A DNA stretch of 64,000 bases from Haliangium sp. (GCF_050303215.1 NZ_JBNLBH010000019.1:1-64000), one strand, 5' to 3'; counted from the stretch's first letter, positions 18,170-21,826 are shown. The notes: generated by a model from the sequence alone, not told the origin. Numbers and translations: made by a program.

Positions 18170-21100
18170 ATGTCTCTGTCATCGAACAGCTTCTACGCGG
18201 ACCTGCACATTCATTCGAAGTACTCGCGGGCGACCAGCAAGCACTGCGACCTGGAGCACCTGTCGTACTGGGCCCGCAAGAAGGGCATCGCCGTGATCGG
18301 CACTGGTGACTTCACCCACCCCAAGTGGCGGGAGGAGCTCAGGGACAAGCTGGTGCCTGCCGAGCCGGGGCTGTTCCGGCTCCGCGACGACCTCGATCGG
18401 GCGGTGTGCGAGCGCCTCGGCGCGCCCGCGACCCGGGCTCCGCGGTTCATGCTCTCGGTCGAGATCTCGACCATCTACAAGAAGGGCGACAAGACCCGTA
18501 AGGTCCATCACCTGGTCTACGCACCCGACCTGGCCAGCGTCGATCGCATGGTGGCGCGCCTGGCCAAGATCGGCAACCTGCGTTCGGACGGACGTCCCAT
18601 TCTGGGCCTGGACTCACGCGACCTGCTCGAGATCGTGCTCGACGCCGGCGAGCACTGCTACCTGATCCCGGCGCACGTGTGGACGCCGTGGTTCGCAGTC
18701 CTGGGCTCGAAGTCGGGCTTCGACCAGATCGACGCCTGCTACGGCGACCTCAGCGAGCACATCTTCGCCATCGAGACCGGTCTCAGCTCGGATCCGAGCA
18801 TGAACTGGCGCCTGAGCGCGCTCGACCGCTACACCCTGGTGTCGAACTCGGACGCCCACTCGCCGGCCAAGCTGGGGCGCGAGGTGTGCGTGTTCGAGAC
18901 CGACATGGACTACTTCGCCATGCGCCGGGCGCTGGAGACCCGCGCCGGCTACGGCGGAACCCTGGAGTTCTTCCCGGAGGAGGGCAAGTATCACCTCGAC
19001 GGGCACCGCAAGTGCGGGGTCGTGCTCGAGCCGGAGCAGACCCTGGCCCACGGCGGGATGTGCCCAGAGTGCGGCCGACCGCTAACCGTGGGAGTGGTGC
19101 ACCGGGTGACCGAGCTGGCCGATCGCCCCCACGGGGCTCGACCCCAAGGGGCATCGCCGTTCCGCAGCCTGGTGCCGCTGCCCGAGATGCTGGCCGAGAT
19201 CTTGAATACCGGCGCCGGCAGCAAGCGGGTGGGGCGCACGTACGAGAGCTTGATTGCCCAGGTGGGCGCGGAGCTGGACATCCTCGACCGATTGCCGATC
19301 GAGGAGCTCGACCGCAGCGGTCACCCCCAGGTCGCCGAGGCGGTGGCGCGCATGCGCGCGGGCCGGGTCATCCGCAGTCCCGGCTTTGACGGCGAGTACG
19401 GCGTGATCCGGCTGTTCGAAGACGGTGAGCTGCGCCGCACCCCGGCCGTCAGCCTGCATCTGGCGCTGCCCGAGCCGAGCGACACCGCGCCGCTGCCCGA
19501 GCCGGCCACCCCCGCCACCGATGCCGCTGGGGTGGCGGCCCCTGTCGCTTCCACCGCCGCGCCCAGCAATGGCCCGGGGCCGACCGTCGAGCCCCGGGCA
19601 GCGACCTCGCCCCCGGCCGCGCCGACAGCATCGGCGGCCACCGCGACGGATGCGGGGAGCCAGGTCCTCGACGGGCTCGATCCCGACCAACGCCGGGCGG
19701 CTGCCTGCGTCAGCGGGGGGTTACTCATCGTCGCCGGGCCGGGCACCGGCAAGACCCGCACCCTCACGCACCGCATCGCGCACCTGGTGGTCGATCACGG
19801 CGTGCCGGCGGCGGCGTGCCTGGCCATCACCTTCACCAACCGCGCCGCCGCAGAGTTGCGCGAGCGACTGGCCGCGCTCCTGCCCGCGGGCGCTCGGGCC
19901 ACGGTCACGACCTTTCACGGCCTGGGGCTCACCATCCTGCGCGAACACCGGGTCCGGGCCGGCCTCCACCGCGGCTTCCGAGTCGCCGGGGAGGTCGAGC
20001 GGGTCGCGGTGCTGGCCCAGGCCCTGGGCTGCAGCCAGCGCAAAGCGTCCGGGGTGCTCAGCCGCCTGGCCCGGCTGGGGCTGTTGCGGGCGAGCCCGCC
20101 CGAGTCCGCCCCCGTGGACGACGATACCCTCGCGGCCTTGGCTGTCTACCGGGCCGCGCTCGAACAGGCCGCGCTGGTGGACTTCGACGAGCTCCTGGTG
20201 CGCGCAGTCCGGCTGCTCGCCGACGAGGTCGACATCCGCCGCGACTACCGGCGCCGCTTCCGGCACGTGTCCATCGACGAGTACCAAGACATCGATGGGC
20301 TCCAGTATCGCCTGGTCGAGCTCTTGTGCGGACAGATGGACGGTGATGCCGAGGACGAGCCGGACACCGACGCAATCGGCGGCTCCGTCGGCGGCGCAAT
20401 CAGCGCTCCCGCTGGCGACGCGACCAGGGGCCGCAGCCTGTGCGCGATCGGCGATCCCGATCAGGCTATTTATGGCTTTCGGGGCGCGGACGTGGGCTTC
20501 TTCCTCCGCTTCCGCCACGACTTCGCCGGCGCCCGCGAGATCCATCTGACCCGCAACTACCGCTCGACCGCCACCATCGTACAGGCGGCAGTGCAGGCCA
20601 TCGCGCCGACCTCGCTGGTCGCGGGGCGCAGCCTGGTGGCGGTGCAGCGAGTGAGCGCGCCCGGCGCAGCCGAGCCCGGCAACGTCGCCATCATCGAGGC
20701 CGCCAGCGAGCGCGCCGAGGCCGAGACCGTGGTGCACACCATCGAGGCGCTCATGGGCGGGACCAGCTTCTTCTCCATGGACAGCGGCCGGGTCGACCAC
20801 GGCGATGGTGCGGATCTCGGTTTCGGTGACATCGCGGTCCTGTACCGCGTCGCGGGCCAGGCCGAGCCCCTGTGCGAAGCGCTGGCTCGCTCGGGCATCC
20901 CGTTCCAGCGCCGCGCCCACACCCGCCTGGCCGATCAGCCCCTGGTGCAGGCGTTGGTCGAGCGCATGCAAGACTCGCTCGACGCTGCGCTCCCGGTCGA
21001 GCCGGTGGACGCGGCCAGCCCACGACAGCGCGCGGGCGAATGCGATCCGAATCACGGCGTCGAGGATCCCGACGGCCTGACCCGCCCCGGCCCACTGGAG

Positions 21101-21826
21101 CAGCACCTACGCGCGGCCGCGGCGCTGCTGGCCGAGCAGGGCCACGACCAAGGCGACCGCGGCGGCCCCGATCAGCTCGATCTCGACACCGCGGTCGAGA
21201 TGCTGCTCCCGCTCGCCGCTCGCTGCGGCGGCGACCTGGCCGGCTTCCTCACCGAGCTGAGCATGGACAGCGAGGTCGATCTTTGGGACCCGCGCGCCGA
21301 CCGAGTGTCCCTACTCACTCTGCACGCGGCCAAGGGCCTCGAGTTCCGGGTCGTGTTCCTGGTCGGCTGCGAAGACGGCATCCTGCCCATGCGCTGGGGC
21401 GCTCGCACGGCTACCGCCGGCGGCCGCCCCAGGCCCGACGAGGCTCTCGCCCCTGGAACCGTCATTGACTCTCGCTCTGAGACCGGCGACGACCGTCGCC
21501 GTGGGACTGACGAGCCCGCCGACTCCCAACTCGAGAGCGCCGGCTTGCCTGCGTCTCTGTCCGGGACATCCGCGGATGCCGTGATGACCGGGCAGGTGTC
21601 CGAAGATCCGGACGCGGAAGAGCGGCGGCTGTTCTTCGTCGGCCTCACCCGCGCCCAGGAGCAGCTCTACCTGCTCCACGCCCGCAAGCGTCGCTGGCGC
21701 GGCGTGGCCTGCGAGCTGCCGCTGTCGCCCTTCGTTGCGGCCATCGAGGACGCGCTGCTCGATCGCCACCGACGGCGCGCGCGGCGCAAAGCGCCGGCCG
21801 GGCACGAACAGCTCGGCCTGTTCTGA
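18170..21826 (+). CDS. PHP-domain (TIGR00375-like, with C4 Zn-ribbon) fused to UvrD/PcrA-type superfamily-1 DNA helicase
   Basis: N-terminus ADLHIHSKYSRATS...GTGDFTHP forms a PHP metal-binding fold. CPECGRPLTVGVVHRV is a Zn-ribbon. A Pro/Ala-rich linker follows. Helicase motifs include LLIVAGPGTGKTRTLTHRIAHLV (Walker A), a FTNRAAAELRERL motif, LLTLHAAKGLEFRVVFLVGCEDGILP and EERRLFFVGLTRAQEQLYLL. Start at MSLSS (18170); an alternative is 18149. Confidence 0.82.
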   Translation: MSLSSNSFYADLHIHSKYSRATSKHCDLEHLSYWARKKGIAVIGTGDFTHPKWREELRDKLVPAEPGLFRLRDDLDRAVCERLGAPATRAPRFMLSVEISTIYKKGDKTRKVHHLVYAPDLASVDRMVARLAKIGNLRSDGRPILGLDSRDLLEIVLDAGEHCYLIPAHVWTPWFAVLGSKSGFDQIDACYGDLSEHIFAIETGLSSDPSMNWRLSALDRYTLVSNSDAHSPAKLGREVCVFETDMDYFAMRRALETRAGYGGTLEFFPEEGKYHLDGHRKCGVVLEPEQTLAHGGMCPECGRPLTVGVVHRVTELADRPHGARPQGASPFRSLVPLPEMLAEILNTGAGSKRVGRTYESLIAQVGAELDILDRLPIEELDRSGHPQVAEAVARMRAGRVIRSPGFDGEYGVIRLFEDGELRRTPAVSLHLALPEPSDTAPLPEPATPATDAAGVAAPVASTAAPSNGPGPTVEPRAATSPPAAPTASAATATDAGSQVLDGLDPDQRRAAACVSGGLLIVAGPGTGKTRTLTHRIAHLVVDHGVPAAACLAITFTNRAAAELRERLAALLPAGARATVTTFHGLGLTILREHRVRAGLHRGFRVAGEVERVAVLAQALGCSQRKASGVLSRLARLGLLRASPPESAPVDDDTLAALAVYRAALEQAALVDFDELLVRAVRLLADEVDIRRDYRRRFRHVSIDEYQDIDGLQYRLVELLCGQMDGDAEDEPDTDAIGGSVGGAISAPAGDATRGRSLCAIGDPDQAIYGFRGADVGFFLRFRHDFAGAREIHLTRNYRSTATIVQAAVQAIAPTSLVAGRSLVAVQRVSAPGAAEPGNVAIIEAASERAEAETVVHTIEALMGGTSFFSMDSGRVDHGDGADLGFGDIAVLYRVAGQAEPLCEALARSGIPFQRRAHTRLADQPLVQALVERMQDSLDAALPVEPVDAASPRQRAGECDPNHGVEDPDGLTRPGPLEQHLRAAAALLAEQGHDQGDRGGPDQLDLDTAVEMLLPLAARCGGDLAGFLTELSMDSEVDLWDPRADRVSLLTLHAAKGLEFRVVFLVGCEDGILPMRWGARTATAGGRPRPDEALAPGTVIDSRSETGDDRRRGTDEPADSQLESAGLPASLSGTSADAVMTGQVSEDPDAEERRLFFVGLTRAQEQLYLLHARKRRWRGVACELPLSPFVAAIEDALLDRHRRRARRKAPAGHEQLGLF

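Follow-up and report, generated by a model that had tools for sequence, protein, structure and literature searches.

A window of 64,000 nucleotides from Haliangium sp. (GCF_050303215.1, NZ_JBNLBH010000019.1:1-64000), the whole stretch of DNA that was analyzed, carries on its plus strand a gene whose 1218-amino-acid (aa) product is almost certainly a fusion of endonuclease Q (EndoQ) and a UvrD-type helicase (EndoQ-UvrD fusion), as judged from homology, of the type seen in the long form of bacterial EndoQ. The gene occupies 18170..21826 (stop codon 21824-21826) within one uninterrupted plus-strand open reading frame (ORF) that spans 17990 to 21826. The ATG at 18170 is supported as the start codon because homologues begin 2-10 residues ahead of a conserved FYADLH[IV]HS block and because a separate gene call on an identical public contig (Logan SRR36185838_289877) also yields 1218 aa, and an AGGA lying 10 nt upstream of this ATG was counted in its support. 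A longer start at the GTG at 17990 was rejected on the same grounds, i.e., the homologues start just ahead of FYADLH and the separate gene call uses 18170. The gene has a GC content of 0.712, in line with the window mean (~0.703-0.704), and a GC3 of 0.884; a composition profile of the window displayed no GC anomaly at the fusion gene. An earlier annotation made from the sequence of the window (the original prediction) had proposed a nuclease-helicase fusion in a single polypeptide at 18170-21826, and both its boundaries (start codon evidence, GC content, and the separate gene call) and its architecture, with one protein matched in both modules, were upheld.

The N-terminal module aligned end to end (aa 10-418) with EndoQ from Pyrococcus furiosus (PfuEndoQ; PDB 5zb8 and 7k30-33; E = 7e-51) and by this alignment is a whole three-domain EndoQ, consisting of a PHP barrel, a Zn domain, and a helical domain, beyond a bare PHP phosphoesterase. 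Mapping the PfuEndoQ alignment residue by residue placed the PHP catalytic domain at aa ~8-270 (18191..18979, plus strand, approximate bounds), followed on the same strand by the Zn-binding domain at aa ~271-335 (18980..19174) and the C-terminal helical domain at aa ~336-419 (19175..19426), where the PfuEndoQ alignment reaches chain residue 385. The helical domain corresponds to PF27218 (MJ0043_C), which is recorded on the identical public 1218-aa product. The Pfam PHP domain PF02811 gave no match at E < 0.01 in a local Pfam search, so the PHP assignment rests on the match to the EndoQ crystal structures.

All ligands of the catalytic zinc pair were kept, namely H13, H15, E98, H113, H169, and D228 together with H230, which map to H8, H10, E76, H84, H139, and D193 plus the conserved H195 of PfuEndoQ (residue roles from PMC5961232). 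The lesion-pocket and steric-gate residues H169, G204, and S206 were likewise retained, and their Pfu counterparts H139, G169, and S171 are reported to keep normal T and A out of the pocket (PMC5961232; PMC8307549). W174 (Pfu W144, in the adjacent loop) and R142 are conserved too, and all of these positions were invariant in a 12-sequence family alignment. None of the metal ligands was therefore lost on alignment, a loss that would have counted against the fusion, and the proposal of an N-terminal PHP phosphoesterase stood as to its type and its His/Asp/Glu ligands while the generic PHP nuclease gave way to a complete, lesion-specific EndoQ. The CxxC...CxxC ribbon read earlier in this region needed correction, as the actual pattern is HxxC...CxxC, with the zinc site formed by H279-x2-C282 and C298-x2-C301 (GHRKC...CPECG). 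This His-Cys3 arrangement was present in 120/121 family members, the set being the Haliangium protein plus its top 120 database relatives. From its conserved catalytic and pocket residues, the module is predicted to be catalytically competent and to incise DNA 5' of a deoxyuridine (dU), deoxyinosine (dI), deoxyxanthosine (dX), or abasic (AP) site.

A Pro/Ala/Thr-rich low-complexity linker at aa ~420-500 (19427..19669, plus strand) separates the two modules, and composition (21 Ala and 15 Pro in 81 residues) bore out the Pro/Ala linker of the original prediction with a length of ~80 aa. The linker region was unconserved in family alignments. Beyond it lies a UvrD/PcrA-type SF1A helicase module at aa ~501-1195 (19670..21754, plus strand), delimited by Pfam matches, PDB matches, and motifs. 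Pfam matches included PF00580 UvrD-helicase (4e-58, 197.7 bits against a cut-off of 23), PF13361 UvrD_C (6e-29, 102 bits against a cut-off of 25.6), and PF13245, also above its cut-off, and the PDB structures of PcrA, UvrD, and Rep matched at 2e-61 (PcrA 1pjr) to 9e-48. The full motif set was identified on the plus strand, comprising motif Q (Q507), motif I GPGTGKT (aa 523-529, nt 19736-19756), motif Ia TFTNRAA (aa 554-560), motif II DEYQD (aa 703-707, nt 20276-20290), motif III GDPDQAIYGFRGA (aa 761-773, nt 20450-20488), motif IV NYRS (aa 796-799), motif V TLHAAKGLEF (aa 1050-1059, nt 21317-21346), and motif VI VGLTRA (aa 1157-1162, nt 21638-21655). Motifs I, II, III, V, and VI were intact in 114-120 of the 121 family members. 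On these matches the module is a complete UvrD/PcrA-type SF1A helicase with all checked motifs intact, as had been proposed.

The helicase module departs from its relatives in its insertions and from PcrA/UvrD in its end. An acidic/Gly-rich lineage-specific insertion between motifs II and III (aa 721-745, 20330..20404, plus strand) was missing from 10 of 11 aligned homologues, a further lineage-specific insertion (aa 943-973, 20996..21088, plus strand) falls within the variable segment that separates motif IV from motif V, and two lineage-specific low-complexity insertions lie between motifs V and VI (aa 1077-1111 and 1119-1144, 21398..21601, plus strand). These four low-complexity insertions account for the ~140 aa by which the protein exceeds the family median of 1080 aa. 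The PcrA alignment ends at residue 660/724, leaving the PcrA/UvrD C-terminal tail unmatched; in its place, only a tail of ~55 aa follows motif VI, holding no further domain and ending in a clamp motif.

This terminal motif, QLGLF (aa 1214-1218, 21809..21823, plus strand), is a putative binding motif for the beta-sliding clamp (DnaN), as judged from its conservation. The Haliangium protein ends in ...HEQLGLF, the commonest endings in the family are DQLSLL and EQLGLF, and the pattern Q[LMIV]x[LMIF][FLMI] occurred within the last 12 residues of 111/121 members. A Q-x-x-hydrophobic-hydrophobic C-terminus was also found in 104/126 long cluster representatives. The bacterial clamp consensus is QL[D/S]LF, the motif has already been noted for long bacterial EndoQ homologues (PMC4858679 Suppl. 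Fig. S1), and in archaeal EndoQ a PIP box at the same terminal position binds PCNA, which stimulates the enzyme (PMC4858679). One cluster representative of 790 aa (P0136) has an EndoQ module 60% identical to the N-terminal part of the Haliangium protein and no Walker A motif, yet looks complete and ends in QMELF; it may represent EndoQ joined to a different or degenerate C-terminal region with the clamp motif retained.

The three-dimensional structure was modeled with AlphaFold2 (AF2) for a homologue 58% identical to the Haliangium protein (P0118) in place of the latter. The model had a mean pLDDT of 81.8 and a pTM of 0.60 and contained two well-folded modules, of which the N-terminal one superposed on PfuEndoQ 5zb8 with a TM score of 0.82 and the helicase on the UvrD-DNA complex 2is1_A with a TM score of 0.76. 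Residues 420-470 of the homologue, equivalent to the linker, had a pLDDT of ~32 and were predicted to be disordered. A structure search with the same model revealed no PDB entry spanning both modules.

The fusion is widespread among bacteria. Among at least 8000 database relatives, the top 120 were all 1024-1296 aa long and carried the same precomputed Pfam set of EndoQ C-terminal and UvrD domains. When one genome for each species in GTDB was scanned by pattern, at least 593 relatives in at least 10 phyla were confirmed, and the best 80 of these covered essentially the whole query. Among the 80, carriers in the Actinomycetota included ~25 Micromonospora species, Salinispora, Actinoplanes, Saccharopolyspora, Rhodococcus rhodnii, and a Streptomyces, and those in the Myxococcota included Sorangium and Polyangia; others were Planctomycetota, Verrucomicrobiota, Binatia, Acidobacteriota, Gemmatimonadota, Chloroflexota, Melainabacteria, and Alpha- and Gammaproteobacteria. 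The nearest species-representative genomes encoded proteins 52-55% identical to the query and the nearest metagenome proteins were 62-66% identical. When 1.84 billion cluster representatives were searched with the EndoQ module by HMMER in filter-only mode, 3913 matches were obtained, 1152 of them at E <= 1e-30, and 127 of the 150 best representatives were at least 900 aa long, most of the others being truncated or frameshifted fragments of the fusion. Two other short representatives (P0185 and P0257) break off close to where the EndoQ module finishes, lack the clamp motif, and were probably cut at contig ends. In a neighbor-joining tree of 54 full-length proteins, grouping was largely by phylum with the Haliangium sequence among the Myxococcota, which points to mainly vertical inheritance. 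The original prediction had named a widespread housekeeping repair helicase as the outcome that would speak against its reading, and the distribution and tree found here essentially describe such a protein. Relatives are labeled at NCBI only as "UvrD-helicase domain-containing protein."

The family has a place in the literature, where Shiraishi et al. 2016 (Sci Rep, PMC4858679 Suppl. Fig. S1) tabulate "bacterial EndoQ homologs" with the clamp motif at residues ~940-1244. The table includes Haliangium ochraceum WP_012825435 (QLGLF 1157-1161), Sorangium cellulosum WP_012236160, Chondromyces apiculatus, Caldilinea aerophila, Rhodococcus rhodnii, Saccharopolyspora, Opitutaceae, Zymomonas mobilis, Geobacter metallireducens, and several Desulfovibrio including Desulfovibrio vulgaris, and Sorangium, R. 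rhodnii, Saccharopolyspora, Opitutaceae, and Caldilinea recurred in the GTDB-species scan. The Haliangium protein resembles these long homologues in size class and in its C-terminal QLxLF and differs in carrying four low-complexity helicase insertions; the published table does not name a helicase domain. By this comparison, it is another member of a known, widespread, and literature-listed long-form family. Within the searchable literature, no paper was found explicitly describing an EndoQ-helicase fusion, naming its UvrD domain, or characterizing the long form biochemically. Miyazono et al. 2018 divide EndoQ proteins by domain organization into three families, two of them bacterial, and the long form is probably one of the two bacterial families of Shiraishi 2017 as that work is cited in PMC5961232.

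Comparison with characterized enzymes set out what each module shares and where it differs. The EndoQ proteins of P. furiosus and Thermococcus kodakarensis (5ZB8, 7K30-7K33) have the PHP, Zn, and helical domains and the pocket in common with the Haliangium module, to which they are ~30% identical, but are ~400-424 aa long and lack a helicase, and their C4 zinc site, PIP box, and PCNA partner contrast with the His-Cys3 site and beta-clamp type QLGLF of the bacterial protein. The EndoQ of Bacillus pumilus and B. subtilis is, in the account of Shiraishi 2017 relayed by PMC5961232, a short, stand-alone, active enzyme of ~400 aa with no fused helicase, and it shares with the Haliangium protein a proposed role in alternative excision or nucleotide incision repair. 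UvrD, PcrA, and Rep (2IS1, 1PJR, and 1UAA) have the motif set in common with the helicase module at ~30% identity and differ in that the Haliangium protein carries an N-terminal nuclease. The fit of the homologue model to UvrD on a single-/double-stranded DNA junction, together with the full motif set, leads to the expectation of 3'-5' polarity and of unwinding initiated at nicks or junctions.

The features above are best accommodated by a clamp-tethered repair enzyme for deaminated or abasic DNA that would nick first and unwind second, a reading of the specific order of events that is given a probability of roughly 0.6. Through its QLGLF terminus, the protein would dock on DnaN clamps located on replicating DNA or behind it. 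The EndoQ module would then flip a dU, dI, dX, or AP site into its pocket and cut directly 5' of it to give a 3'-OH end and a lesion-bearing 5'-phosphate, a step proposed because the catalytic and pocket residues are fully conserved. Such flipping of dU, dI, dX, or AP nucleotides and cutting of the 5' bond to leave 3'-OH/5'-phosphate ends is known for characterized EndoQ (PMC4357722; PMC8307549), and this chemistry is established for enzymes from archaea and Bacillus. In the archaeal proposals, the EndoQ cut is followed either by a strand-displacing polymerase with Fen1 or by EndoQ/EndoV cuts and then an unnamed helicase (PMC4357722), and the bacterial long form would supply a helicase step of the archaeal type in cis. 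The fused helicase would load at the nick, move 3'-5' on the intact strand, and peel off the lesion-bearing strand, as proposed from the behavior of UvrD-family helicases, which translocate 3'-5' and can begin unwinding at a nick during both nucleotide excision repair and mismatch repair. A 5' flap nuclease or exonuclease, a clamp-bound polymerase, and ligase would complete the repair. The stronger version, in which the protein is a self-contained clamp-tethered excision machine that needs no glycosylase or UvrABC/MutL-type loaders, would define a bacterial route of alternative excision or nucleotide incision repair, and perhaps also restricts uracil-containing foreign DNA, is tentative and held at a little under even odds.

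Several points weigh against this account. The order of events, the loading strand of the helicase, and the interaction with the clamp are each inferred, and the literature search turned up no activity measurement for any long-form protein. One zinc ligand is His279 where the archaeal C4 site (C249, C252, C268, and C271; CPxCG) has Cys, so that three Cys and the CPECG signature are kept while the site departs from the C4 definition; the His-Cys3 site plausibly still binds Zn. The TIGR00375 match (156.5 bits, E = 1.2e-45) missed the NCBI trusted cut-off of 326.6, and the NCBIfam equivalog scores of the helicase fell far from theirs (PcrA 319.7/911, UvrD 263.6/1144, and Rep 249.7/951), so that the substrate range could differ from that of the characterized enzymes. 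Homology is clear in the TIGR00375 match, where the sub-threshold score fits a divergent long-form subfamily, and the helicase module is, by its scores, a distinct subfamily other than the canonical UvrD/PcrA/Rep orthologue of the cell. The helicase could also act ahead of the nuclease, for instance by scanning single-stranded DNA (ssDNA). In such surveillance at the fork or along ssDNA, the helicase would move on single-stranded or forked DNA where clamps mark it and EndoQ would inspect the exposed strand and cut at deaminated bases, or the helicase would mainly strip tightly product-bound nuclease or other proteins from the nick. UvrD-family proteins are established as ssDNA translocases and protein strippers, and the flexible ~80-aa linker permits either order. 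EndoQ itself acts on both ssDNA and double-stranded DNA (dsDNA) and is tied to the replication clamp (PMC8307549; PMC4858679), but an ssDNA cut at a fork would create double-strand ends, and this helicase-first scheme, whose order the sequence does not tell apart from nick-then-unwind, is considered unlikely. The least probable alternative is a general end-processing helicase-nuclease akin to RecB, AddA, or AdnB with PHP as a non-specific exo- or endonuclease; these enzymes share with the Haliangium protein the UvrD-like SF1 core and the combination of helicase and nuclease, RecB and AddA are among the models and structures that match the core, and PHP domains are established as exonucleases in some polymerases. 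RecB, AddA, and AdnB have a C-terminal PD-(D/E)XK nuclease and partner subunits, whereas the nuclease here is N-terminal, a full lesion-specific EndoQ with an intact pocket and no PD-(D/E)XK; RecB/AddA equivalog scores reached 100-123 bits against cut-offs of ~700, no AddB/RecC/RecD-like partner is adjacent, and the best structural match is a monomeric UvrD on a DNA junction.

The original prediction had likened the fusion to single-gene defense or repair effectors and suggested a search for defense islands. As a single-gene anti-phage effector, the protein would use EndoQ to cut phage DNA that carries uracil or another non-canonical base and then its helicase to unwind that DNA or help degrade it. 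By a suggestion cited in a review, Bacillus EndoQ may also serve antiviral defense and is not blocked by the phage inhibitor Ugi (PMC8307549), one homologue adjoins a weak AbiEi_4 match and lies near an HNH gene, and PADLOC gave strong matches of the fusion protein to GajB and a DRT-associated helicase. These matches covered the generic UvrD core only, NCBIfam PcrA (320 bits) exceeded any GajB model (220 bits), and the GajB matches reflect the generic UvrD-like SF1 core that Gabija GajB, itself part of a helicase and nuclease combination, has in common with the fusion. The partner of GajB is GajA, an OLD-family ATPase/TOPRIM nuclease encoded as a separate protein, and no GajA-like or other defense partner was found among the neighbors in the window. 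These neighbors encode an AAA_22 protein, an esterase, an aconitase-family protein, an LNS2-type phosphatase, a TPR protein, and a Ser/Thr kinase (Pfam), and PADLOC on all six (~7 kb on each side) matched no defense model except for generic Ser/Thr kinase similarity. A tblastn of the six against 80 related loci gave 0 matches save generic kinase matches in four loci, and all-against-all clustering of ORFs within 6 kb in the 80 loci revealed no partner gene across phyla. Stable synteny was confined to the Micromonosporaceae, in at most 28 loci, and the Pfam-annotated contexts of four diverse homologues were metabolic or housekeeping. The congruence of the tree with phyla and the 28 syntenic Micromonosporaceae loci are unlike the patchy distribution of mobile defense genes, the C-terminus conserves a putative clamp-binding motif of the sort found on repair and replication proteins, and no relatives turned up when the family alignment was used to scan the viral contigs of IMG/VR. 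The defense-island reading was therefore rejected, as PADLOC and Pfam gave only generic UvrD and kinase similarity in the protein and its six neighbors, and a phage or mobile origin was rejected from the IMG/VR result and the lack of a GC anomaly at the gene. The anti-phage effector is accordingly judged quite improbable, while the repair half of the earlier comparison stood, in a widespread protein of repair type. Nicking followed by unwinding at a clamp-tethered repair enzyme remains the preferred reading.

The fusion gene is divergent from the minus-strand aconitase-family gene at 15904..17886, with a 283-bp spacer between them. The divergent promoter with AT-rich upstream DNA at 18060-18170 that had been described held as to the arrangement, and the AT enrichment proved mild, with a GC content of 0.613 (7th percentile of 111-nt windows; window mean ~0.704). 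The spacer as a whole had a GC content of 0.714, with no AT richness overall, and 18090-18169 one of 0.537. A sigma-70-like promoter match, TTGGAA-17-GATAAT, lies at 18135..18163 on the plus strand as a consensus match only, and the sigma-70-like scan gave 2 sites against 0.2 expected in shuffles. The GATAAT -10 element ends 7 nt short of the ATG at 18170, and transcription from this promoter would give an mRNA with little or no leader. The AGGA, a possible ribosome-binding site, lies in these same bases, and the promoter and ribosome-binding readings exclude each other. The upstream region has the normal look of a promoter region in a 70%-GC genome, with nothing unusual.

Further observations concern the neighboring genes and the window ends. 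The aconitase-family gene at 15904-17886 (minus strand) encodes 660 aa in permuted order, with Aconitase_C (swivel) at residues 96-143 ahead of Aconitase at 210-647. A fusion relative 61% identical to the Haliangium protein (P0005) has an aconitase-family gene ~4 kb upstream, so that the lineage shows local synteny. The esterase ORF at 14661-16097 (minus strand), in which Pfam Esterase spans residues 238-425, shares ~190 nt with the aconitase gene, and its true start is probably an internal codon, e.g., the Met of MHYRPLASS at ~residue 97, before a signal-peptide-like stretch. The minus-strand gene at 11031-14582 encodes a 1183-aa protein whose N-terminal half is rich in Ala, Pro, and Glu and probably coiled-coil, with hydrophobic segments in mid-protein and a C-terminal P-loop region; AAA_22 at 859-984 (E = 5e-6) was its only Pfam match, and it had no PADLOC match. 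The Ser/Thr kinase at 23926-25998 (minus strand) probably has a transmembrane segment, its long C-terminal half is of low complexity, and its matches to PADLOC PD-T4-6 kinase models (E = 8e-66) were read as generic kinase similarity because no other defense component lies nearby. Upstream of the homologue in Sorangium sp. So ce131 (L082, 150-9350), a VgrG-like gene (Phage_GPD/Phage_base_V), a DUF2169-pentapeptide-repeat gene, and two unannotated large genes were found, and this type VI secretion-type cluster beside the fusion gene is probably a coincidence, other loci being without it. Within the window, positions 1-2000 had a GC content of 0.578 compared with ~0.70 elsewhere, and 62001-64000 had a GC skew of +0.287 and an AT skew of -0.25.

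For annotation, a better label for the protein and its relatives would be "EndoQ-UvrD fusion, clamp-binding repair enzyme," which also removes a false lead toward a defense system. EndoQ is usually described as archaeal and present in "a few" bacteria (PMC4357722; PMC5961232), and through the long form its bacterial range is considerably wider than stated in the literature, with at least 593 species genomes. The long form also makes up essentially all of the 150 cluster representatives closest to the query among the 3913 EndoQ-like clusters. The coupling of nicking and unwinding would be new mechanistic knowledge, though the family is already listed, and if the proposed mechanism is true, the fusion would offer a natural model for a nicking enzyme that hands DNA to a UvrD-type motor. 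If nuclease and helicase act in turn on one lesion, the fusion would give high-GC soil bacteria a compact, glycosylase-independent repair of cytosine and adenine deamination.

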